From IMG/VR virus record IMGVR_UViG_3300007735_000917, positions 1 to 64,000 of that record: 64,000 bases of DNA. One strand, 5' to 3'. The first letter of the stretch is position 1. Each line of letters begins with the position of its first letter. Origin of the DNA: a virus (taxonomy: Duplodnaviria > Caudoviricetes). This document shows, piece by piece, positions 31,367 to 53,985 of the stretch. A model generated the notes under the pieces. That model was not told where the DNA came from, searched no databases, and saw nothing but the letters and a program-made list of their open reading frames with translations. A program made the position numbers and the translations under genes.

Positions 31367-31510
31367 ATGGGAAGAAAAAAGAAATATACAACTGAACAAC
31401 AACTTAACGGCGCAAATAAAGAAAAATATATGCGGTACTATCATAATAATATTATTGAAAGAAGAAAAAAAGCATTAGAAAGATATTATAAAAAGAAAGA
31501 AGAGAAATGA
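31367..31510 (+). CDS. Small basic protein coupled to the endonuclease (not in ORF track)
   Basis: MGRKKKYTTEQQ...ALERYYKKKEEK, 47 aa; ATGA overlap with the next gene; TATTTATT upstream. Confidence 0.6.
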   Translation: MGRKKKYTTEQQLNGANKEKYMRYYHNNIIERRKKALERYYKKKEEK

Positions 31511-32307
31511 AACTCTATTTGATGATAAAAACACATAATATAACTGGCAAAAAATATTTATGCAAAAAACAAGCTAGAAATGATATAGAAGCCATTAAAT
31601 ACACAGGATCAGGTCTTAAATGGAAACCACATTTAAAAGAATTTGGCAAAAATTTTACTACTGAAATTTTGTTTGTTTGTCCAATTGAAAACAAAACGGA
31701 ATTTAGAAAAATAGCTATAGATTATAGTTGTAAACTTAATATTTTAAGTGATTCGAATTGGATGAATATGATATTAGAAGATGGCGGTGGTGGTTCAACA
31801 TCAGAAACAAATGGTAGTAAAGGTAAAAAATGGATTTATAAAGATGAACAAAGAAAAAGTGTATGTCAAAGTGTATTGCAAGAATATCTATCAAATGGAT
31901 GGACTCTTGGATTTCCAGAAAAATTTAAAAAAATCATTTCTGATTATAGCAAAGGAAAAATTCCGTGGAATAAAAATAAAAGTTTAAAACTTCCACATGA
32001 ATATACATCAAGAATTTGTAAGAAAAAATACAACTCTAATAAATCTAATAAATATACTAGTGAACTTAGAAGTTTAACTGCAAAAGAATGTTTAAATAGA
32101 CCAGAAGTATTATTGAAATTTAAACAACCAAGAAAATCCCCAATTACAGCAAAAAATGTAACCACGAATGAAATTAAAACGCTTGGTAGAAGACAATGGC
32201 ACGATGTTCACCAAATAGATTATAGGAAACTTTTGAAGGGATATACATCAAAAGGATGGAAGATGGTAGTGGTACCGGGACTTGAACCCGGAACTTCACC
32301 CTTATAA
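31507..32307 (+). CDS. Seg-like (GIY-YIG-related) free-standing homing endonuclease
   Basis: LYLMIKTH..TGKKYL, KYTGSG..W..HL, N...EDGGGG; NUMOD-like KGKIPWNK. Confidence 0.65.
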   Translation: MKLYLMIKTHNITGKKYLCKKQARNDIEAIKYTGSGLKWKPHLKEFGKNFTTEILFVCPIENKTEFRKIAIDYSCKLNILSDSNWMNMILEDGGGGSTSETNGSKGKKWIYKDEQRKSVCQSVLQEYLSNGWTLGFPEKFKKIISDYSKGKIPWNKNKSLKLPHEYTSRICKKKYNSNKSNKYTSELRSLTAKECLNRPEVLLKFKQPRKSPITAKNVTTNEIKTLGRRQWHDVHQIDYRKLLKGYTSKGWKMVVVPGLEPGTSPL

Positions 32308-32340
32308 GGAGTGTACTCTAACCACTTGAGTTATACCACT
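32264..32340 (-). tRNA. tRNA-Ile(UAU)
   Basis: AGTGGTA/TACCACT acceptor, CACTC-CTTATAA-GGGTG anticodon arm, TTCAAGT T-loop, encoded CCA. Confidence 0.92.
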
Positions 32341-32350
32341 ATCAAAAAAC

Positions 32351-32423
32351 TGGAGCGGGTCCGAACTTTGCATTTCGCCTTTTGATCTGGTAGACCAACG
32401 TGCTCTCTTTACACTTGACCCGC
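32351..32423 (-). tRNA. Atypical tRNA-Gly(ACC)
   Basis: GCGGGTC/GACCCGC acceptor, U73, CCA; TTGGT-CTACCAG-ATCAA anticodon arm; A8 and degenerate T arm. Confidence 0.7.
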
Positions 32424-32434
32424 ATCTTAAATAC

Positions 32435-32722
32435 AAATAGGAAGGACTAATGATTACCTCCAAGTTTCACAATATGCACCGTTATTCATCCACAATCCAT
32501 AAAGTTAATTACTCTCTATGTTAACAATTGATGGGATTGGTTTCCCACAACGACCTACGATATATCATTTATTTTAGCTACGATGTCGTTACGCTTGGAT
32601 TATAGGTTGTACGACCCACATTCCGCCATAGACTTACACTACATATTGCTACTCCAACCAATAATGATTCTTCACCACTATTGTGCGTTACCCCTATACA
32701 AAGGTTGTTCCGCCACTATCTT
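32435..32722 (-). ncRNA. ~290-nt pseudoknotted ncRNA, possibly GOLLD-related
   Basis: Terminal helix, long-range helices with G-U pairs, loop pseudoknot, own boxA-like motif, lies between tRNAs. Confidence 0.7.
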
Positions 32723-32747
32723 AAATTGTTAAAGAACTATCAAAAAA

Positions 32748-33025
32748 TGGTAGGGATGAGTGGATTCGAACCACCGCTTTACAGATTTTCGTACTACTAT
32801 AACTTTCGTTACTCATTTCTGATTTGTAGTCTGGACTTTCTCTTCATCATAACATTTCTGTTTTAGATGTTCGCCGTTAAGTCTCTACACCTTCTCATTT
32901 CTGAACTTGGCTCGGGATTGGCAGTTAAGCTTTCCCCGAATTTGACGAATTCTACTTTGAAGATTTCTCTTCAAGCACTCAATTTACGCTAAAGTCTGTT
33001 GCCTCTTCCGCTGGGCTACATCCCC
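32748..33025 (-). tRNA. tRNA-Leu(UAA), intron-split (exons 33025-32992 and 32789-32748), short variable arm
   Basis: Spliced 76 nt: GGGGATG..ACAGA CTT^AAAA TCTGT..GGTGG TTCGAAT CCACT CATCCCT ACCA. Confidence 0.92.
32790..32991 (-). ncRNA. Group I intron (trnL-UAA type), 202 nt, no ORF
   Basis: P AAATTCGGGGAA, Q AATCCCGAGC, R GTGTAGAGACT, S AAGAGAAAGTCC; P1 ACUU/GAGU with U-G splice pair; terminal G. Confidence 0.92.
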
Positions 33026-33065
33026 ATTTAAATTTGTTTAAAGAACGTTTACTTACTACTTATTC

Positions 33066-33093
33066 ATCTTACCACATCATTCTCTGATGTCAA
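33066..33093 (-). promoter_or_regulatory. Sigma70-type promoter with extended -10
   Basis: TTGACA-N16-TAAGAT with TGG before the -10. Confidence 0.75.
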
Positions 33094-33109
33094 CTGCTTT
33101 TTCAAAATT

Positions 33110-33186
33110 TGGTAGCTAGGGTCAGATTCGAACTGACACTGTTTCGTTTTTGAGACGAATGCCTCCTGCCTTTGGGCTACCTAGCC
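33110..33186 (-). tRNA. tRNA-Leu(CAA), short variable arm
   Basis: GGCTAGG/CCTAGCT, TTCGT-CTCAAAA-ACGAA, 5-nt variable loop, TTCGAAT, ACCA. Confidence 0.9.
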
Positions 33187-33289
33187 ATTTAATCTTATAC
33201 AATAACTATACCACAAAATCAAAAAATTTAAGTGAAATTTAATTTCATTTTATACTTATAAGTGTAAAGAAATTACTAATCCTTACACT

Positions 33290-33748
33290 ATGAAATACGA
33301 TAAAAATAAAATGATTCAACTTCAATCCCAAGGAGAAACTTATGATAATATTGCAAAGAAAATGGGTTGTTCTAAATGGACGGTTGATTACCAACTCAAT
33401 CCAAAAAGAAAAAAATGTCAAACTAAATATGACAAACAAAAACAAAAAACAGATACTCTTTATTTTAAGAGAAAACGTTTTTTGTCAGTTGGAAACAAGG
33501 TTCCATTTACATTAAAAGAACTAAAAAATAAAATTGGAACTAATCCAAAATGTTATCTTACCGGAGAATCAATTGATTTGTCAAATCCAAGTGATTACAG
33601 CTTGGATCATATCATTCCTGTATCTAAAGGAGGTGAAAGTTCTCTAAAGAACTTAGGAATTATTAAATCTGATATAAATCAAGCAAAATATAATCTTACA
33701 CCAGAAGAATTTCTCTCATTATGTAAGCGAGTATTAAGACAAATTTAA
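33290..33748 (+). CDS. HNH endonuclease with N-terminal HTH
   Basis: TYDNIAKKMGCSKWTV HTH; CYLTG, SLDHIIPVSKGG, N, NQAK. Confidence 0.85.
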   Translation: MKYDKNKMIQLQSQGETYDNIAKKMGCSKWTVDYQLNPKRKKCQTKYDKQKQKTDTLYFKRKRFLSVGNKVPFTLKELKNKIGTNPKCYLTGESIDLSNPSDYSLDHIIPVSKGGESSLKNLGIIKSDINQAKYNLTPEEFLSLCKRVLRQI

Positions 33749-33751
33749 AAA

Positions 33752-33845
33752 TGGTGGTTCCGCCCGGATTCGAACCGAGACCGTGCTCAAATCTAGAGCT
33801 TATCAACGTTATAAGCGTTGCGTTCTACCGTTAAACTACGGAACC
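33752..33845 (-). tRNA. tRNA with UAU anticodon and long variable arm (94 nt)
   Basis: GGTTCCG/CGGAACC, CAACG-CTTATAA-CGTTG, 24-nt variable region with GCTC/GAGC stem, TTCGAAT, ACCA. Confidence 0.85.
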
Positions 33846-33851
33846 ACTAAA

Positions 33852-33928
33852 TGGTAGCGGGGGAGTGAATTGAACACTCTACCTTCCGGTTATGAGCCGG
33901 ACGATCTATTCCGTTGATCTACCCCGCA
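33852..33928 (-). tRNA. tRNA-Met(CAU), initiator-like
   Basis: U1:U72 mismatch, TCCGG-CTCATAA-CCGGA, TTCAATT, ACCA. Confidence 0.85.
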
Positions 33929-33961
33929 AATTTTTAAAAGAACATAAAATCTTATATACTA

Positions 33962-33989
33962 ACTATACTGCCAAATTTTCAAAAGTCAA
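33962..33989 (-). promoter_or_regulatory. Sigma70-type promoter
   Basis: TTGACT-N16-TATAGT, overlapping the 3' end of the endonuclease gene. Confidence 0.65.
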
Positions 33990-34730
33990 CTGAAATTTAT
34001 TTGTTTTTAACTTTTCAATTTCTTCTTTTTTTATAATTATTAGTTTATGTGGAAATTGTTCCCACTTAGCTTTGTCTCTATCTCTTTCATATCCTTTAAC
34101 TTCAATAAAGACATTATCATAATCTAACAATTTAAAGTCCGGAAAATATCTGTGGTAAGATTCATTCCAATAATATTGGAAATTTTCTTCAATTTTATTT
34201 GACCATCTTATATTATTTTTGTTTAAATAATCTATTACTAATAGTTCCCATTTACCAAGACAACTAGTTTCATTACCTAAACTATCTACAGTCTTAATTG
34301 TTTTAACTCTACCACAAACATTTTTACTAGAATAAGATTCTGGATTATCATTCACTGCTTTCTTCATTTTCAATGAATGTTCCAACCTTTTTTCTTTAGT
34401 CCAAACTTTCTTCTGTAATATTTTTTGTTTTTCAGAAATTTTATTTAACTGCTCTTTTGTTAATGGATTTAACTTCATTTTTAATTTCTGAGAACAAGAT
34501 TTATTGCAACAATTATTTTTTCTTTTTTTTAAAGAAATTTCTTTCTTACATAGAAGACATAAATTTGGTTTTTTTTCATATTCCATTCTTCTTTGGAATG
34601 CATCAAATACATTAAAACATTGTACTTTACAAAAAGTTTTATTACGAACTCTTTTTCTTTTATTATAAGGTATAACTTCCATACAAGATTTACATTTGTT
34701 TGGATTTAAATCATATTCTTCTTTAGTCAT
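33963..34730 (-). CDS. PD-(D/E)xK endonuclease with CxxC repeats (free-standing homing endonuclease-like)
   Basis: WE..V..YL, YFPDF, FIEVKG; N-terminal Zn-finger-like repeats. Confidence 0.8.
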   Translation of the reverse strand: MTKEEYDLNPNKCKSCMEVIPYNKRKRVRNKTFCKVQCFNVFDAFQRRMEYEKKPNLCLLCKKEISLKKRKNNCCNKSCSQKLKMKLNPLTKEQLNKISEKQKILQKKVWTKEKRLEHSLKMKKAVNDNPESYSSKNVCGRVKTIKTVDSLGNETSCLGKWELLVIDYLNKNNIRWSNKIEENFQYYWNESYHRYFPDFKLLDYDNVFIEVKGYERDRDKAKWEQFPHKLIIIKKEEIEKLKTNKFQLTFENLAV

Positions 34731-34800
34731 ATCTAATATATATTAGAGAGCCAGACTAAAGTCTTGTCTTTTGACATTTTTTATTTCAAAGAACAATAAA

Positions 34801-34872
34801 TGGTTGGAACGGTGGGTGCTGCCCCCACTTAAACTGGCTTATGAAACCTGTTTCTTTGCTGAAAGCGCTCCA
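34801..34872 (-). tRNA. Non-canonical tRNA-like gene, CAU anticodon, miniature D arm
   Basis: TGGAGCG/CGTTCCA acceptor, CTTT-CAGC-AAAG, TTCATAA loop, GTGGG-GGCAGCA-CCCAC, ACCA. Confidence 0.65.
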
Positions 34873-34879
34873 ATTGAAA

Positions 34880-34958
34880 TGGTAGCGGGTACAGGAGTCG
34901 AACCTGTTATCACTAACGTTATGAGCGTTGTATGGTAATTCCGTGCCACTCACCCGCA
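34880..34958 (-). tRNA. tRNA-Met(CAU) with 1:72 mismatch
   Basis: GCGGGT/ACCCGC, AACG-CTCATAA-CGTT, TTCGACT, ACCA. Confidence 0.82.
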
Positions 34959-34989
34959 AATTGTTTATAAAGAACTAAAAATTAAAAAT

Positions 34990-35152
34990 TATGTTGGGTG
35001 TGATTATTGAATACTTTGTCCACCCAACAAACAGAGTATACCATGCGCTAACCCCGCAACCAAGAAGTTTTTTAAGAGAACTTCCAACTCTAGGGGCGTA
35101 GTTTCCTATACCCTCCACCAAGTTGTTTTTATTAGATAAACAACCAAACATC
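34990..35152 (-). ncRNA. Unknown ~160-nt structured RNA
   Basis: Stems GGUUGUUU/AAACAACU, AGGGUAUA/UAUACUCU, GAAGUU/AACUUC, UGUUGGGUG/CACCCAACA. Confidence 0.55.
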
Positions 35153-35155
35153 AAA

Positions 35156-35231
35156 TGGTAGAGCCACAGAGAATCGAACTCTGATCTATTCCGTGAAAGG
35201 GAATTATCCTAAACCGTTAGACGATGACTCC
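35156..35231 (-). tRNA. tRNA-Glu(UUC)
   Basis: ATTCC-CTTTCAC-GGAAT, TTCGATT, ACCA. Confidence 0.92.
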
Positions 35232-35238
35232 GTTAAAA

Positions 35239-35315
35239 TGGTGGCCCCGGTGGGACTCGAACCCACGACCAAAAGCTTAAAAGGCTTCTGCTACTACCAA
35301 CTGAGCTACAAGGCC
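35239..35315 (-). tRNA. tRNA-Lys(UUU)
   Basis: GAAGC-CTTTTAA-GCTTT, TTCGAGT, ACCA. Confidence 0.92.
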
Positions 35316-35353
35316 ATTAAAATTGTTTTAAAGAACTTATTTACTACTTTTTT

Positions 35354-35381
35354 ATCTTACCACGATTTTTTGTTTTGTCAA
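35354..35381 (-). promoter_or_regulatory. Sigma70-type promoter with extended -10
   Basis: TTGACA-N16-TAAGAT. Confidence 0.75.
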
Positions 35382-35383
35382 CT

Positions 35384-35497
35384 AAGTATTTCATTCTTTC
35401 GTCGGTGACCCCCTTTGGTTAAAGGCCAAGGCAGTTCCACCATACAAAGATGTTCTAGAGGAGTGCTTCTCCCACCACGCTGAGAGAACGAATACTT
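35384..35497 (-). ncRNA. Unknown ~110-nt GC-rich structured RNA with its own promoter
   Basis: UUCGU/ACGAA, UCUC/GAGA, UCCUCU/AGGGGG, two 7-nt-loop hairpins, possible GGUGG/UCACC pseudoknot. Confidence 0.6.
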
Positions 35498-35508
35498 ACT
35501 ACTTCTTT

Positions 35509-35536
35509 ATCTTACCACTAAGTTTTCAAAGATCAA
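35509..35536 (-). promoter_or_regulatory. Sigma70-type promoter
   Basis: TTGATC-N16-TAAGAT with extended -10. Confidence 0.65.
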
Positions 35537-35604
35537 CTTCTTTTTTCAAGAAGTTTTGAGGTAAATTATAAATATAATCAAATATTTGTAAAATTAGCAA
35601 AAAA

Positions 35605-35681
35605 TGGTAGCCCCGGAGGGAATTGAACCCCCAACCATACGGGTAGAAACCGTGCGCTCTATCCAATTGAGCTACGAGGCC
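35605..35681 (-). tRNA. tRNA-Arg(UCU)
   Basis: GGCCTCG/CGGGGCT, ACGG-TTTCTAC-CCGT, TTCAATT, ACCA. Confidence 0.92.
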
Positions 35682-35698
35682 ATTAAAATTAAAAGAAC

Positions 35699-36031
35699 TT
35701 ACTTACTGTCGCCTAGTTCTTTACGAACAGCTTTACCAAGTTCAGTTAGCTGAAACAGTGGTTCGCCATCTTCGTTGTGACCAGATACATATAATAGACC
35801 ATCTGCTACCATCTTGTCAACTGTTTCTTTAACTTCAGCCAAAACGAGGTCATTATAAATGACTTCAGCTTCAGCTTCATCACATTCAAGTTCTTTCATA
35901 ATGACTTGAATACAGGCTTCTTTTTCTTCAGCTTTGACTTGTTCTTCTACTTTTGCTGTATCTAGCTTAGAACAATGATTTAGTAGATCGTCAATTGACC
36001 CGGTGAAATTATCGGTAATGTACTTGTCCAT
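35699..36031 (-). CDS. Hypothetical protein, winged-helix-like C-terminus
   Basis: VDKMVADGLL...FQLTELGK. Confidence 0.65.
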   Translation of the reverse strand: MDKYITDNFTGSIDDLLNHCSKLDTAKVEEQVKAEEKEACIQVIMKELECDEAEAEVIYNDLVLAEVKETVDKMVADGLLYVSGHNEDGEPLFQLTELGKAVRKELGDSK

Positions 36032-36048
36032 TTTTATAAATAGTTGAA

Positions 36049-36336
36049 TTAAATACCGTAGACGGGAACATTCTTGTAATAGCGAACGGATCGATCAATC
36101 ATCTTATTTAGAATCTTGGCTGTAGATACAGGTACATTTGTTTTTGGACCCCAACCATTTTCAGCTCGGCCTAGAGCAATGGTGAGTGCTTTACACTTAT
36201 CAAAACGATCACCTGCTTTTGTATTGGTGTGACTCCATCCAAATCGGATTGCGCCATCAATTACTGTGGCAACAACCATACCACGGGGCTGACCATTGCG
36301 GTCACGTACCAACTGCTTGAGTGTAGTGTCTTTCAT
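36049..36336 (-). CDS. Hypothetical phage protein
   Basis: 95 aa; GWS...DRFDK..A..IALGRA. Confidence 0.65.
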   Translation of the reverse strand: MKDTTLKQLVRDRNGQPRGMVVATVIDGAIRFGWSHTNTKAGDRFDKCKALTIALGRAENGWGPKTNVPVSTAKILNKMIDRSVRYYKNVPVYGI

Positions 36337-36360
36337 ATAACCTTTATTTAAATGTTTAGT

Positions 36361-36543
36361 TTACTTTCCCTCGACGTAACGTAGTAGATCACGATTTGGT
36401 TCCGTGCCAATCTTTTCATCTACTGTCTGCTTAATAGCAGCCTTATAATAATATTCTGCGTATAGATCTGTTAGATGCGACTTTCGTTCTGCGATTTTTG
36501 ATTTGAGATTGTTAATAAGTGTTTGAGTTGTCTTCGTCTTCAT
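36361..36543 (-). CDS. Hypothetical protein
   Basis: 60 aa, in operon. Confidence 0.55.
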   Translation of the reverse strand: MKTKTTQTLINNLKSKIAERKSHLTDLYAEYYYKAAIKQTVDEKIGTEPNRDLLRYVEGK

Positions 36544-37316: not shown

Positions 37317-37859
37317 TTAGTTATTGTCAATATAGTTGCGATAAAAACCCATTACAATTCCACTAGTAGTACCCACATTAAGTGATCGTACACTGCCATA
37401 TGCTGGAACAGTAACAATATAGTCACTGTTATCAAGAATATAATCACTCAATCCAGCCTTTTCTTCGCCAAATACAAACATTGGCTTATCTACACCAGTA
37501 AATACCCAGTGGTTAAAAATAGATACTGTCTTGTCACTATACTTGGGAATGTTATTTTCCACAGCAATTAGTGTATAACCGTTATCATTTACATAATCAA
37601 CAAAGTCTTCTTCTGTCTTAATATGATTTAAATCTGTATAGTGATGAGTACCCACCGTACCACGACGGTCCCATTGCTTGCTTCCTCCTACATACATAGC
37701 TTCCTTGAAGCCAAAGAAGTTTGCATTGCGTACCAAAGTGGAGAGGTTAAAGTCTCCATTAACGTGCATCATAGCAACACCTGCTTCGATACAACTATTC
37801 TTACAGTAAGACTTAATATCGTCTACTGTCTTGCTCTTTAAATGATCCAAAACATTCAT
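37317..37859 (-). CDS. SpoU/TrmH (SPOUT) family RNA 2'-O-methyltransferase
   Basis: NLSTLVRNANFFG, FVFGEEKAGL, VPAYGSVRSLNVGT. Confidence 0.88.
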   Translation of the reverse strand: MNVLDHLKSKTVDDIKSYCKNSCIEAGVAMMHVNGDFNLSTLVRNANFFGFKEAMYVGGSKQWDRRGTVGTHHYTDLNHIKTEEDFVDYVNDNGYTLIAVENNIPKYSDKTVSIFNHWVFTGVDKPMFVFGEEKAGLSDYILDNSDYIVTVPAYGSVRSLNVGTTSGIVMGFYRNYIDNN

Positions 37860-40561: not shown

Positions 40562-41404
40562 ATGAAAGGGATTATTTTAGCTGGAGGTACCGGTAGTAGA
40601 TTATATCCATTAACCAGTACAATAAATAAACAATTGTTGCCTGTTTATGACAAGCCGATGATTTATTATCCATTTTGCACATTATTGTCGTGTGGTATTA
40701 AAGATTTTTGCATTATTTCTTCTCCTGAATATTTGCCTTCTTATGAAAAGTTATTTGGAGATGGCACTCAATTGGGAGTTAAGATTACTTATAAAGTGCA
40801 ATATAAGCCAAGAGGAATAGCTGAAAGTTTCATTATAGCCGAAGACTTTATTGGTGATGATAATGTTGCTCTTATACTAGGAGACAATATATTCCACGGA
40901 ATGCCCAGAGTCAAGCCTTTACTTGAAGGTGCAATTATTTTTGGTTATGAAGTTAATGATCCTAGAGCTTATGGAGTTATTGAATTTGATAGTGAAAACA
41001 ACGTAATAAGCATAGAAGAAAAACCAGTTGAACCCAAGAGCAATTATGCGGTACCAGGCTTATATTTTTATGACAAAAGAGTAGTTCAGTATGCTAAATC
41101 ACTTAAGCCTTCCAACAGAGGTGAAATTGAAATAACTGATTTAAACTTAATATATCTTGACAAAGCGCAGCTTACCGCTGTAAAATTTGCTAAAGGCACA
41201 GCGTGGTTAGATGCTGGAAGTGCTGAAACATTATTTGAAAGTAGTGCTTATATACAAGCTATTCAATCAAGACAGGGAATTAAAATAGGATGTATAGAAG
41301 AAGAGTGCTACAAGCGCAAATATATAAATAAAGCGCAATTGCAGTGCTTAATAGGTAAAATGCCTGAAAGTGAATACAAAAAATATTTATTAAAATTATT
41401 ATGA
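40562..41404 (+). CDS. rmlA: Glucose-1-phosphate thymidylyltransferase
   Basis: MKGIILAGGTGSRLYPLT..NKQLLPVYDKPMIYYP, LILGDNIF, EKP..PKSNYAVPGLYFYD. Confidence 0.95.
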   Translation: MKGIILAGGTGSRLYPLTSTINKQLLPVYDKPMIYYPFCTLLSCGIKDFCIISSPEYLPSYEKLFGDGTQLGVKITYKVQYKPRGIAESFIIAEDFIGDDNVALILGDNIFHGMPRVKPLLEGAIIFGYEVNDPRAYGVIEFDSENNVISIEEKPVEPKSNYAVPGLYFYDKRVVQYAKSLKPSNRGEIEITDLNLIYLDKAQLTAVKFAKGTAWLDAGSAETLFESSAYIQAIQSRQGIKIGCIEEECYKRKYINKAQLQCLIGKMPESEYKKYLLKLL

Positions 41405-42267
41405 TTATATTATTCGGATCAAGCGGTTATATTGGAAGTGAATTCAAAAAGCAATTAGCTGAATTAAAGCTACCTGTTTTTCTTTGGCCAAATGCGCATA
41501 AAACCACTTTTGCAGATTTGGAAAAGTGGTATGATGAAGCTGGATATCCACTCATAGGCGCTGTAATAAATGCAGCTGGATATACTGGCAAACCTAATGT
41601 GGATGCATGCGAATTAAACAAAGAAGATACTATCCACGGCAATATTGTATGGCCGCAAATATTAACTGATTGGTGTATGTTAAATGATATACCTTTAGCG
41701 CATGTTTCCAGTGGTTGTATATATGAAGGTAAAAGAGCCGATGGCAATCCTTTTACTGAAGAAGATGTACCAAACTTTAGTTTTGCGCAAAATAACTGTA
41801 GTTTCTACAGTGGTACCAAAGTAATAGGTGAACAAGTAGTAAAGAAGTGGGAAAAGCACTATATTTGGAGATTGCGAATTCCATTTGAAGAGTTTGATAA
41901 TTCTAGAAATTATATAAGCAAAATATTAAAGTATGAAAGACTGTTAGATGCTGAAAATAGTGTAAGCAACAAACAAGAATTTGTAAGTGCTTGTATTCAA
42001 ACCATTACCAAAGAAGTTCCATATGGTACATATAATGTGACCAATGGTGGTTATATCACGACCAAGGGTGTAGTAGAAAAGTTTAAGAATACAATTGCAA
42101 AAGACAAAACCTTTACATTTGTGGAAGAAGATGAATTTTATAAAAATGTAGTCAAAACACCCCGATCAAATTGCGTGATGAGCAACGAAAAGTTGTTGTC
42201 AACTGGAATCAAAATGAGAACCGCAGACGAAGCTTTTGACCATTGCATTAATAATTGGACTGTATGA
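41401..42267 (+). CDS. RmlD-like NAD-dependent sugar epimerase/reductase
   Basis: GSSGYIG, NAAGYTGKPNVDACE, SSGCIY, YSGTK. Confidence 0.85.
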   Translation: MIILFGSSGYIGSEFKKQLAELKLPVFLWPNAHKTTFADLEKWYDEAGYPLIGAVINAAGYTGKPNVDACELNKEDTIHGNIVWPQILTDWCMLNDIPLAHVSSGCIYEGKRADGNPFTEEDVPNFSFAQNNCSFYSGTKVIGEQVVKKWEKHYIWRLRIPFEEFDNSRNYISKILKYERLLDAENSVSNKQEFVSACIQTITKEVPYGTYNVTNGGYITTKGVVEKFKNTIAKDKTFTFVEEDEFYKNVVKTPRSNCVMSNEKLLSTGIKMRTADEAFDHCINNWTV

Positions 42268-43220
42268 ATATATTAGTAACAGGAGGATGTGGATTTATTG
42301 GAAGTCACTTTATAGAAGAAATTCTAAAAAGAGATGATGTTGTTATGGTTTATAACATTGATTGTGGTACTTATGCTGCAAACAAAAAACTTCCCTTTCA
42401 AAAAAATCCTAGATATCACAGATTGTCACTGGACATTGCTGCGCCTTATTTTCCAGATCAAAAGAAATATATTGATTCGTTAAATTTAGATTATGTGATT
42501 CATTTTGCAGCAGAATCGCACGTGGATAACTCTATCAAAGGACCAAAAAGATTTATTGAAACAAACATTATCGGTACTTTTAATCTATTAGAAATGCTTA
42601 AGGGTACAAACATAAAGAAGTTTATTCACGTATCCACCGATGAAGTGTATGGATCATTGAATCACAAAGAAGGATCTTTTACTACAGACAGTCCTTATAG
42701 AGCAAATAATCCATATTCAGCTACTAAAGCTGCCAGCGATCTACTGGTTAGAAGTTATAACAAAACTTATAATTTCCCAGCAATTATTACCAATTGCAGC
42801 AACAACTTTGGGTCCAGACAATATACTGAAAAGATGATTCCAGTATGTATTCAGAAACTTCTCAACAAAGAAGCCATACCTTTATATGGTAATGGGTCGA
42901 ATGTAAGAGACTGGATCTATGTCAAAGACCACGTTAATGCACTTATATGCGTTCTATTAGATGGTAAAATAGGAAAACAGTATTTGATAGGGTCTGACAA
43001 CGAACTATCTAACTATGAGCTTATACACGTGATTAAAGATGTATATAGTACTATAACTGGAATAGAAGTAGACTGGGAATGGTTTAAATATGTTGAAGAC
43101 CGTAAAGGACACGATAGTAGATACAGCATTGACAATCGTGACTTCAAGATGGAGTTTCCTCAATTTAACACAACTAAATTTGATATTGCTATTTTGGAAA
43201 CGGTCAAATCATATTTATAA
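42264..43220 (+). CDS. rmlB: dTDP-glucose 4,6-dehydratase
   Basis: ILVTGGCGFIGS, HFAAESHVD, HVSTDEVYG, PYSATKA, RDWIYVKDH. Confidence 0.95.
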   Translation: MNILVTGGCGFIGSHFIEEILKRDDVVMVYNIDCGTYAANKKLPFQKNPRYHRLSLDIAAPYFPDQKKYIDSLNLDYVIHFAAESHVDNSIKGPKRFIETNIIGTFNLLEMLKGTNIKKFIHVSTDEVYGSLNHKEGSFTTDSPYRANNPYSATKAASDLLVRSYNKTYNFPAIITNCSNNFGSRQYTEKMIPVCIQKLLNKEAIPLYGNGSNVRDWIYVKDHVNALICVLLDGKIGKQYLIGSDNELSNYELIHVIKDVYSTITGIEVDWEWFKYVEDRKGHDSRYSIDNRDFKMEFPQFNTTKFDIAILETVKSYL

Positions 43221-47848: not shown

Positions 47849-48493
47849 ATGAATACAATAGCTAATAAATTGATCTGTTTGAACCTAAATTCGAACTGGC
47901 AACCAATTGGTTTCAAAACCGTAAAAGATGCAATTATTGATCTTTGTGGTGGTGAAGTTGATGGTAAACCTTCTAGTTTGGCGTTGGACATTGACTACGA
48001 ACTTCTTGAGAACGGAGAGCCAAATCTTTCTGCTCCCAAGAATATGAATCCCGTAAGTTGGACCGAGTGGTTGAAACTACCTATTCGTCCCTGGGATTTG
48101 GTAATCAATTCAGCTCATATGTCTGTACGTGTACCAACCGTTATCATTGCTGTTAATTTCAGTAAAATGCCTGTAAAGTCATTTAAGGGAAAACCCAGCA
48201 AAGATGCAATTTATAACCGTGATAATGGTATCTGTCAGTATACTGGCAAAAAGATTGATCGTCACGCAGCTACTGTAGACCATATTCTACCTCGTAGTAA
48301 AGGTGGAGAAGACAGTTGGACCAATCTGGTACTGTGTTCACGGGATATCAATTCTAAAAAAGGTAATAGACTAAATACAGAAGCTGGTTTGAAGTTGATC
48401 AAACAACCTAGTATTCCACAACCAATTCCAGTGTCAGCTTTGATTAAAGAAGCAAAACACAAAGATTGGGAACACTTTTTGATGGGTGTTTAA
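47849..48493 (+). CDS. HNH endonuclease (McrA-like)
   Basis: IYNRD..CQYTG, TVDHILPRSKGG..SW.NLV.C...N..K. Confidence 0.88.
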   Translation: MNTIANKLICLNLNSNWQPIGFKTVKDAIIDLCGGEVDGKPSSLALDIDYELLENGEPNLSAPKNMNPVSWTEWLKLPIRPWDLVINSAHMSVRVPTVIIAVNFSKMPVKSFKGKPSKDAIYNRDNGICQYTGKKIDRHAATVDHILPRSKGGEDSWTNLVLCSRDINSKKGNRLNTEAGLKLIKQPSIPQPIPVSALIKEAKHKDWEHFLMGV

Positions 48494-52399: not shown

Positions 52400-52873
52400 A
52401 TGAATAATATAAATCATCTATTGTCTCAAAATGGCATACTATCATCATTCAATATATGTAAAAAAGTGAGTCCCACAAAAGTAAAGAATATAAAAAAGAA
52501 GTTGTTGAAAGGTGGTGTACCCGAAAATAAAATTGAAGATGAAGTGTATAAACATATTATAAATAATCACATAGATGATTCAATAATTGATGATATACCA
52601 GGAATAATATTAGAAGGTGTGCCACCTAAAATCAAAATTGCCCCAGCTGTTCAAAAGAAAATAGTTTCAGCTTCAAATGAGATTAGTGAATATTTTAAAA
52701 AGAATAAATTTACAAAGGAAGAAATAATATTGTATATACAAGCTGTATTTTTTCTTTGTGGTATCACAAATGACGATGTTGCAGATTTTAAAGAAAAATA
52801 TAATATTAATAACAGCAAAGATGAAGACTATTTAGATGAAGAGGACGAAGACGAAGAATCAGGTTTTGAATGA
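52400..52873 (+). CDS. Hypothetical protein with acidic tail
   Basis: 157 aa. Confidence 0.65.
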   Translation: MNNINHLLSQNGILSSFNICKKVSPTKVKNIKKKLLKGGVPENKIEDEVYKHIINNHIDDSIIDDIPGIILEGVPPKIKIAPAVQKKIVSASNEISEYFKKNKFTKEEIILYIQAVFFLCGITNDDVADFKEKYNINNSKDEDYLDEEDEDEESGFE

Positions 52874-53985
52874 AATATCTTATGGAAATATATAATATTA
52901 ATGACGTTGTTCCGTTTATGGAAAACAAAAAAGTTGCATTTGTTACAGGTGTGACTGGTCAAGATGGCAGCTTTATGGTAGATTATCTGTTGAAAAACAC
53001 AGACTATTTCATCGTGGGAGGTGCTAGAAGACTAAGTATCAAAAATCACGAAAACATTAGACACTTAGAAAACAACCCCAGATTTAAATTAGTTAACTTT
53101 GATTTGAGTGATGCACATAGTATTAGCAAAATTGTAGAAAAGTTAAAACCAGAGTACTTTATTAATTTGGCAGCACAGACATTCGTTGGTAGTAGCTGGG
53201 ACTTTCCAGCTCAAACTTGGGAATGTAATACTACTGGGGTAATTCATATTCTAGAAGCTATTCGTCAACACAAACCAACTTGTAGATTCTACAACGCCGG
53301 TTCATCCGAAGAATATGGTAATGTCGCTTATGTTCCTCAAGATGAAAATCATCCATCCAAACCTCGTAGTCCATATGGAGCAAGCAAATCAGCTGCTAGA
53401 CAACTGGTTAAAGTATACAGAGAAAGTTATAATTTGTATGCGGTACAAGGATTGTTGTTTAATCACGAAGGTACTAGACGAGGTGAAGAATTTGTTACCC
53501 GTAAGATTACCAAGGGGGTAGCTAGAATTAAAAAAGCAATATCTGAAGGTAAAAGCTTTGTACCAATTGAATTAGGCAATGTTAAAGCTAAAAGAGATTG
53601 GAGTGACGCTGAAGACTTTGTAGATGGTATTTGGAAAATGTTAAATCAAACTCATCCCAATGAATATGTACTTTCAAGCAATGAAACACATACCATCGCA
53701 GAATTTGTACAGTATGCATTTAAAGTTGCTGATATTGACGGTGGATGGCACGGAGAAGCAGAATCTGCGGAGTTTAGTATTACCACAAAAGATGCTATTA
53801 AATATGAACCAGTGGCATCTGTATTGGTAAAGATCAATCCTAAGTTTTATAGACCCGCCGAAGTAGATTTATTGTTGGGTGATAGTACCAAAGCTAGAAA
53901 CGAATTAAAGTGGGAACCTAAAACTTCATTTGAACAGCTTGTAGAAAAGATGGTCAAGAATGATTTGACTCAAATTGGTTTATAA
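52870..53985 (+). CDS. gmd: GDP-mannose 4,6-dehydratase
   Basis: VTGVTGQDGS, NLAAQ, PRSPYGASK, LFNHE..RRGEEFVTRKIT, RPAEVDLLLGD; exact start uncertain. Confidence 0.95.
   Translation: MKYLMEIYNINDVVPFMENKKVAFVTGVTGQDGSFMVDYLLKNTDYFIVGGARRLSIKNHENIRHLENNPRFKLVNFDLSDAHSISKIVEKLKPEYFINLAAQTFVGSSWDFPAQTWECNTTGVIHILEAIRQHKPTCRFYNAGSSEEYGNVAYVPQDENHPSKPRSPYGASKSAARQLVKVYRESYNLYAVQGLLFNHEGTRRGEEFVTRKITKGVARIKKAISEGKSFVPIELGNVKAKRDWSDAEDFVDGIWKMLNQTHPNEYVLSSNETHTIAEFVQYAFKVADIDGGWHGEAESAEFSITTKDAIKYEPVASVLVKINPKFYRPAEVDLLLGDSTKARNELKWEPKTSFEQLVEKMVKNDLTQIGL

Follow-up and report, generated by a model that had tools for sequence, protein, structure and literature searches.

A conserved and probable structured RNA gene with a lysine-anticodon-like hairpin in the tRNA array of large freshwater phages

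What does a phage tRNA array encode at a site where a conserved element stands in line with the tRNA genes and is itself no recognizable tRNA? This question is raised by an element on the minus strand (35384–35536) of the 64,000-nucleotide (nt) stretch formed by positions 1 to 64,000 of the IMG/VR virus record IMGVR_UViG_3300007735_000917, hereafter the window. The element lies within an array of eight tRNAs called by ARAGORN and a group I intron, between tRNA-Arg(UCU) (35605–35681) as its upstream neighbor and tRNA-Lys(UUU) (35239–35315) as the next gene downstream; here and below, features of the array are on the minus strand unless stated otherwise. A reading of this DNA from the letters alone, here called the original prediction, had described a GC-rich RNA with its own promoter and two anticodon-like loops, followed by tRNA-Lys. 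The sequence matched the text of that prediction, the ARAGORN calls confirmed the downstream neighbor, and the core of the element was indeed GC-rich (52% G+C, compared with ~33% in the window). We addressed the nature of the element by comparing its homologues, and we proposed that it is very probably a separately promoted, folded non-coding RNA gene of the tRNA array, ~115 bases in length.

A conserved element with its own promoter

Homologues were collected by several routes. The gene for a 110-amino-acid protein upstream of the element was found at 15 viral loci, the promoter motif led to 15 more, and all 30 loci held the region; they represented 17 distinct sequences, 15 of them intact and 2 with different 3' deletions. 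When IMG/VR was scanned with patterns for the 5', middle, and 3' parts of the core, the same 23–25 contigs came up, all from one clade, and otherwise only chance matches (8 and 2 unrelated ones in the wider scans). In addition, a pattern for the 3' hairpin found 72 metagenome stretches; this pattern fixed core positions 40–43, 46–47, 52–58, 63–65, and 68–73, and the invariance of these positions is judged from the viral set, which was collected independently of this pattern. The ~108 loci with a core were reduced to 72 distinct 190-nt regions, 65 distinct 129-nt pieces, and 26 distinct cores. Exact patterns for the 5' and 3' parts gave no match in 185,579 prokaryote species genomes (one per species), and blastn with the 285-nt region gave none in 50,697 phage records. 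The element is confined to one clade of large freshwater phages. With the covariance model R1, it scored 102.1 bits, compared with 9.6 bits for the next best site in the window; the single match in the window and the single match in the complete relative G001 (295,831 bp) indicated one copy per genome, with no paralogue in either. Two viral contigs with different 3' deletions showed that the element behaves as an accessory gene. In these deletion variants (L002/L028 and L003/L024), one keeping only core positions 1–4 and the other positions 1–29, the remnant is fused to the tRNA-Lys leader, so that the promoter of the element drives tRNA-Lys directly.

The element represents a family that is uncatalogued in Rfam and likewise new to the collections searched. 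Rfam gave no match on the element, neither at gathering thresholds over the whole window nor at E values up to 10 over 31500–36500, where 22 matches fell elsewhere; no known riboswitch matched the element. ARAGORN made no tRNA call at the element, and the Rfam tRNA model RF00005 had no match on 35384–35500 at E up to 10, in agreement with the original prediction that a T arm is lacking.

The alignments and the R1 match delimited a core, GGUGGGAG...GUCACC (35404–35476), which was always 73 nt long without a single indel in the ~108 copies, and in which 54 of the 73 columns were invariant. At the same loci, the mean pairwise identity was 0.943 for the core, compared with 0.936, 0.897, and 0.880 for tRNA-Lys, tRNA-Arg, and tRNA-Glu, respectively. 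The core is connected to a closing stem, P1, by a 5' joining segment, CAGCGU (35477–35482), which is variable and 5–7 nt long in homologues, and by a 3' joining segment, GACG (35400–35403), which reads AACG, AAC, AAG, or AAA(C) in other copies. P1 is a leader-trailer helix of ~15 bp between AAGUAUUCGUUCUCU (35483–35497), a few bases past the predicted transcription start, and AAAGAAUGAAAUACUU (35384–35399), as defined by folding and by a duplex test of cognate and non-cognate strands. The helix formed in all 50 distinct flank pairs, with mean duplex energies of -16.1 kcal/mol for cognate, -12.0 for non-cognate, and -6.3 for shuffled strands, and its covariants included GUUCUUU/AAAGAAC, AUUCUUU/AAAGAAU, and UUCUUUGUUCUUU/AAAGAACAAAGAA. 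The flanks thus vary freely yet always pair, and P1 covaries. The predicted closing stem AAGUAUU/AAUACUU was thereby recovered as part of P1; for the second predicted stem, UUCGU/ACGAA, the closing role held, but the pairing itself is an alternative register of P1 that is specific to the window. Folded alone, the window sequence was no better than chance (z = -1.36; 14 of 200 shuffles folded as well), and it is conservation and covariation that carry the case. GUUCUUU, in the inner part of P1, also belongs to a leader motif, AGTTCTTTAA/TTAAAGAACT, located 10–25 nt 5' of most tRNAs of the array, with copies (in plus-strand coordinates) at 33503–33522, 33934–33949, 34966–34981, 35323–35345, and 35680–35699. 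The copy at 33503–33522 has no called tRNA behind it and may mark another RNA at ~33430–33505.

As originally predicted, the element has its own promoter, which is of the sigma-70 type and consists of a -35 hexamer TTGATC (35531–35536) and, 16 nt after it, an extended -10 element TGGTAAGAT (35509–35517). Both were read in the sequence and belong to a 61-nt module that is found three times in the window; the promoter and ~20 nt of leader recur before tRNA-Lys and before an intron-bearing tRNA, and none of 100 shuffles gave any match. Among the homologues, the -35 hexamer was TTGATC or TTGATT and the spacer varied; of the 72 extracts, 45 were long enough for both hexamers, with TAAGAT as the -10 hexamer in 37 and TAGGAT in 5. 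From the spacing only, we infer that transcription would start at ~35501–35503. A simple consensus scan lists the tRNA-Lys copy of the promoter and misses that of the element, in which TTGATC and TAAGAT agree with the consensus at 8 of 12 positions and stay under the threshold. The listed copy, TTGACA-16-TAAGAT with TG (35354–35381), serves tRNA-Lys; this second promoter follows directly after P1 and was present in 69 of the 72 distinct regions.

There was no terminator-like site within 35300–35600, and therefore none between the element and tRNA-Lys, so that transcripts should run on into tRNA-Lys; with its own promoter and no terminator, the element would be an independent unit and at the same time the leading segment of a read-through transcript. 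The core is spanned by contigs from four metatranscriptome runs (four studies) that continue into tRNA-Lys. This evidence consists of assembled contigs, and it shows presence in RNA libraries rather than transcription or the ends of an RNA. In two studies, a total of three contigs stop exactly at core position 1 (35476); they were rejected as evidence of a 5' end, since a strain polymorphism starts there (U or C at position -1) and an assembly break explains them equally well. The missing cover of 35517–35567 in three runs was likewise not counted as evidence.

Hairpins inside the core

The structure of the core was assessed by comparing pairings across the homologues, and a model with two hairpins, Pa and a long Pb, paired 99.8% of alignment cells, compared with 92.0% for the originally predicted structure. 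Hairpin Pa (35457–35476; core 1–20) has the strands GG-U-GGGAG and CUCCU-CU around a loop AAGCA, which is UGGCA or AAACA in some homologues. It paired in 99.4% of cells, with G1-U20 replaced by G-C in two cores and A7-U15 broken in one, and is weakly supported, as there was no compensatory change. The following linker (35442–35456; core 21–35) contains the invariant segments AACAUCU and AU, whereas positions 30, 31, and 33 vary freely.

Hairpin Pb (35404–35441; core 36–73) is long and irregular, with UUGG/CCAA at its top, and paired in 100% of cells. It is proven by compensatory changes at two pairs: 49-61 is U-A in 13 cores and C-G in 12, and 51-59 is G-C in 20 cores and A-U in 5, without a broken pair at either site. 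Pair 44-67 was also never broken (U-G in 14 cores, U-A in 10, and C-G in 1). In the lower part of Pb, either GG..GA.CU pairs with GG.UC.CC, or UCACC is given to GGUGG (core 1–5).

Of the two anticodon-like loops in the original prediction, only one remained after these comparisons. The hairpin UUGG-CCUUUAA-CCAA forms the top of Pb, where it contains the two covarying pairs and a loop conserved in both sequence and size. The other hairpin, CAUC/GGUG, whose 5' strand and loop fall into the linker, paired in only 76% of cells; A26-U38 was present in 1 of 25 cores, and the loop sequence was not conserved, with positions 30, 31, and 33 free to vary. The predicted three-way junction UCCUCU/AGGGGG also failed in the homologues (91.3% paired), as C16-G67 was broken in 10 of 25 cores and G67 paired consistently with U44. 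The proposed GGUGG/UCACC pairing is plausible as a helix, both strands being invariant, but it is nested and hence no pseudoknot. By our count, this helix closes the core in the single-sequence minimum free energy (MFE) fold of 57 of 64 pieces, with GGUG as core 1–4, whereas RNAalifold pairs UCACC with G36–A41, and longer forms of Pa and Pb compete with GGUGG/UCACC. The candidate partners of UCACC are all invariant, so covariation does not choose between them; the contig L047 reads UCUCC, which breaks U3-A71 and leaves the other model intact, and this may be a sequencing error.

A GUUCU/AGAAC helix suggested by RNAalifold was rejected, since both strands change without compensation in L122 and the same 5' change is compensated in P1. 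We also rejected a coding reading: the only open frame has 21 codons, and the changes that keep base pairs would alter it radically (W to R and K to E). As a separate observation, the loop bases CCUUU (core 52–56) can pair with AAAGG (core 61–65; 35412–35425 for the whole alternative). This is the MFE choice for variants with UUGA, while covariation favors UUGG/CCAA; a switch is conceivable.

The lysine-like loop and its possible partners

The top loop of Pb, CCUUUAA (35419–35425; core 52–58), was invariant in the viral set: it was unchanged in 15 of 15 intact distinct sequences found via the neighboring protein or the promoter, and also in the viral contigs found via the 5' and middle parts of the core. 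As originally predicted, it resembles the anticodon loop of tRNA-Lys(UUU), CUUUUAA. The two agree at six of seven bases, including UUU at positions 34–36 followed by A37 and A38, and differ by a C in place of U33. The variant UUGA-CCUUUAA-UCAA, present in 5 of 26 cores, agrees at 14 of 15 bases with the anticodon arm of Escherichia coli tRNA-Lys, as its sequence is given in the methods section of PMC11464382; U33 to C is the only difference. Across the cores, the 5' strand of this stem occurs as UUGG, UUGA, or UCGG. The element is, moreover, linked to tRNA-Lys itself. Among 88 distinct contexts, tRNA-Lys(UUU) was the next tRNA in 77 of the 80 that extended >300 nt downstream, usually at a distance of 79–92 nt and in some contexts at 133, 210–240, or 560–590 nt. 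Upstream, the neighbor was tRNA-Arg in 55 contexts and tRNA-Ala in 2, there was no tRNA within 1200 nt in 22, and 9 were too short. The upstream tRNA-Arg is separated from the element by ~740 nt in some relatives rather than by ~130 nt, which suggests mobile insertions at this site.

Genes that act on tRNAs also occur in this lineage. In G001, an RNA ligase of the T4 Rnl1 family is encoded ~10 kb from the element (L124, 1369–2460; 57.7 bits against a cut-off of 28.3), and a small AAA_33 kinase of the PNK/KTI12 type (L126, 1486–1941; 92 bits) lies within 15 kb; RtcB and Ro60/TROVE are both absent from this genome. In the window, a SpoU-family RNA 2'-O-methyltransferase gene (37317–37859, minus strand; 79 bits) is located 1.8 kb upstream of the tRNA array, and its scores against the NCBIfam models of the TrmH, TrmL, TrmJ, and RlmB subfamilies were all far under the cut-offs. 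According to passages of PMC11464382, AriB of the PARIS system recognizes the anticodon stem-loop of tRNA-Lys, and phage T5 escapes with a variant tRNA-Lys; a passage of PMC10264068 describes PrrC as cutting tRNA-Lys and T4 as repairing the damage via its RNA ligase. On circumstantial grounds, namely the ligase, the kinase, the SpoU methylase, and the loop, a conflict centered on tRNA-Lys is plausible for this lineage.

We therefore tentatively propose, from the sequence comparisons, that the element might yield a small RNA that acts in trans and mimics the anticodon arm of tRNA-Lys. Host processing enzymes would release the RNA by cutting at or near P1, and it would accumulate like the tRNAs. 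It would work as a look-alike of the tRNA-Lys(UUU) anticodon arm, made non-decoding by the C in the place of U33, while the remaining invariant core would hold and present this arm, and it would occupy a protein that recognizes the arm of tRNA-Lys. The likeliest such partner would be a host defense nuclease of the PrrC, RloC, or PARIS AriB type that cuts tRNA-Lys and would be blunted by the RNA, while the tRNA-Lys of the phage itself and its RNA ligase would keep translation going. That a nuclease is the specific partner of the mimic is doubtful, and it is unlikely, though conceivable, that the element is an RNA-only anti-defense factor in which a slowly cleaved or non-cleavable arm look-alike would trap a nuclease of the PrrC, RloC, or PARIS type. 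A decoy for anticodon nucleases had also been among the speculations of the original prediction, and the support for it gained here is circumstantial.

A number of observations weigh against this proposal. Position 33, the U-turn base of a genuine anticodon loop, is C in all copies, and the stem has only three or four pairs before a bulged A instead of a regular 5-bp stem. Because the stem covaries freely, its sequence is not what a partner would read. Pa and the linker show the same degree of invariance as the loop, which mimicry leaves unexplained. The match of 14 of 15 bases concerns E. coli and not the host of the phage, and it applies to only 5 of the 26 core variants. The linkage to tRNA-Lys may merely reflect gene order inherited among closely related phages. 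The element is retained at three loci that have no tRNA-Lys in 5.6–14 kb, which fits action in trans but weakens the link. The RNA ligase was found in the relative G001 and not in the window. A discrete stable RNA is itself predicted from the sequence and from assembled contigs; the latter could be DNA carry-over, and one of them (run X8) reaches upstream of the predicted start. Moreover, a nuclease is catalytic, and a decoy that acts stoichiometrically would be a poor means of stopping it.

Alternative roles of the element were weighed on the same evidence. It is about equally probable that a stable RNA of the tRNA array has a partner unrelated to tRNA-Lys or to nucleases, as a protein sponge, a base-pairing RNA, or a component of a ribonucleoprotein, in which case the lysine-like loop would be fortuitous or left over from the origin of the RNA. 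The invariance of Pa and the linker, which implies that function needs more than the hairpin, would be accounted for in this way, as would the lack of U33, and in T4, stable RNAs with no known role are encoded at a comparable site, directly after tRNA-Arg. Set against this are the failure to find a complementary target or partner, a linkage to tRNA-Lys that persists while the upstream synteny changes, and the close match of one variant to a real tRNA-Lys anticodon arm. The element could instead act in cis, as a leader that directs processing of the tRNA-Lys transcript, protects its precursor, or tunes read-through, with no free RNA. Long stems formed by a leader and a trailer are classic RNase III processing sites, and the missing terminator, the RNA-library contigs that join the core to tRNA-Lys, the position of tRNA-Lys as next tRNA in 77 of 80 contexts, and the fusion of the promoter to the tRNA-Lys leader in the deletion variants are in keeping with such a role. 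We nonetheless regard it as rather unlikely: in 69 of 72 regions, P1 is immediately followed by a near-consensus promoter that belongs to tRNA-Lys itself, insertions of ~210–590 nt between the two are tolerated, the element occurs without tRNA-Lys in three contexts and a very similar tRNA-Lys without the element in 31 other viral contigs, and an invariant core of 73 nt goes beyond what a mere processing stem would require.

A multi-stem junction closed by P1, with highly conserved unpaired bases, is typical of aptamers, and a riboswitch-like sensor of a ligand or a tRNA that controls transcription into the tRNA genes was considered for this reason. It appears improbable, because Rfam riboswitches gave no match at E up to 10, an expression platform (a terminator, anti-terminator, or ribosome-binding site) is missing, the next feature is an independent promoter, and the element occurs in one phage clade only, being absent from the 185,579 prokaryote species genomes. 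Within the same line of thought, a reading like that of a T-box, in which UGGU or UGGC would pair with the 3' end of a tRNA, was rejected, since most copies have UGGC, which misfits the discriminator A of the phage tRNA-Lys, and no Lys codon is present in a loop; a reading of Pb as a minihelix with ACCA (positions 71–74) does not suit the clade of the window, which has ACCG. The original prediction had also suggested a small ribozyme. A compact, invariant, multi-helix core and the need to make RNA ends somehow without a terminator would suit self-cleavage that trims its own ends, but no hammerhead, twister, twister-sister, pistol, hatchet, HDV-like, or other ribozyme model matched at E up to 10, the hammerhead core motifs were absent by eye, and tRNA arrays are processed by host enzymes; self-cleavage is accordingly very improbable. 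Finally, a promoter and leader shared with the tRNA genes, a core of tRNA length (73 nt), and the partial loss of the element in two contigs could point to a decaying tRNA gene or to a functionless relic of a duplicated promoter-leader module. This explanation is already disfavored, and indeed scarcely credible, because the conservation is at least that of functional tRNAs, with no indel in ~108 copies, compensatory changes are present, and no tRNA signal is detectable.

Known systems, genomic setting, and significance

Although the family is new, its kind is already known: small unexplained RNAs occur inside phage tRNA clusters, as the T4 record documents. T4 species 1 and 2 are stable RNAs that have been known for about fifty years, with a purpose that is still unknown. 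Their genes, rnaC (species 1, 139 nt) and rnaD (species 2, 119 nt), likewise encode non-tRNA products of similar size in a tRNA cluster on the same strand, and according to the annotation of the T4 record they lie directly after tRNA-Arg, as does the element. There was no homology of sequence or structure: R1 run with filters off over the T4 region gave at best 5.3 bits, at a site other than rnaC or rnaD, and the folds differ. Thus, rnaC has a T arm of the tRNA type and an acceptor-like closing helix, which the element lacks, whereas the element has its own promoter, a long leader-trailer stem in place of a tRNA frame, and a look-alike of an anticodon arm. PrrC and AriB both target the tRNA-Lys(UUU) anticodon arm, as cited above. 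Compared with this arm, the element has a similar loop (six of seven bases, or 14 of 15 for one variant against the E. coli arm) and differs in C33 and the bulged A, so that its action would be binding rather than decoding. Like the nuclease-resistant tRNA-Lys of T5, it is encoded by a phage, here beside the phage's own tRNA-Lys; unlike it, the element has no D arm, T arm, or acceptor end and cannot replace a cut tRNA.

Hairpins that copy a recognition element of a cellular RNA are known from other systems. The thrS operator mimics the anticodon arm of tRNA-Thr and acts in cis on its mRNA, and phage RNA anti-CRISPRs mimic CRISPR repeats. A short hairpin of this type would be the principle that the element has in common with them; its partner here is hypothetical, and RNA anti-CRISPRs copy crRNA repeats, not a tRNA. 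The Y RNA-like RNAs of bacteria and phages (YrlA) also share a long closing stem between 5' and 3' ends, a structured module, and a length of ~100 nt with the element, in which, however, the module is not tRNA-like. There was no Rfam match to Y RNA or YrlA, and Ro60/TROVE, which was detected in control genomes, was absent from G001.

The window as a whole is derived from a large tailed phage, with PHROGs matches to tail-fibre proteins, a helicase, and a lysozyme-type protein; Pfam matches included sugar-nucleotide enzymes, ClpP, NifU, and HNH nucleases. No close cultured relative was found; the helicase had only matches of <60% identity in the 50,697 phage records. Several further features of the array were observed. 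The group I intron (32809–33001; Rfam, 72.2 bits) splits a tRNA gene at 32748–33026 that ARAGORN misses and that is preceded by the same promoter-leader module (33042–33102). Judged by eye, its exons form a class I tRNA with the anticodon loop CUUAAAA (UAA, Leu-type) or CUUUAAA, depending on the splice site. Two calls for tRNA-Ile(UAU) were made (32264–32340 and 33752–33845), one of which, at 94 nt, is unusually long for tRNA-Ile. HNH endonuclease open reading frames are present on the plus strand at 33290–33748, inside the array and opposite to it, and at 47849–48493. The 197-nt spacer between tRNA-Glu and tRNA-Met contains a weak match to the wcaG RNA motif (35049–35153; 31.7 bits against a gathering score of 42, E = 0.0037), and the window also encodes a GDP-mannose dehydratase and rhamnose-pathway genes (40562–43220 and 52870–53985).

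Recent work has shown that phage tRNAs are themselves weapons against tRNA-cutting defenses, and the element adds to the niche of the phage tRNA cluster a well-conserved new RNA family with a defined promoter and fold. It offers a concrete, testable feature, namely an invariant hairpin like that of the lysine anticodon, beside tRNA-Lys, in a lineage with a repair ligase of the T4 type. If the mimicry proposed here is true, an RNA decoy would join replacement tRNAs and repair enzymes among the known counter-measures; as a decoy against an anticodon nuclease it would be the first natural example, and a single tRNA would then be protected in three layers, by the decoy, the phage tRNA-Lys, and the Rnl1-type ligase. 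A literature search named no RNA decoy of anticodon nucleases, which is no proof of absence in print. Should the mimicry fail, the element would still serve structural and binding studies as a well-defined orphan among structured RNAs.

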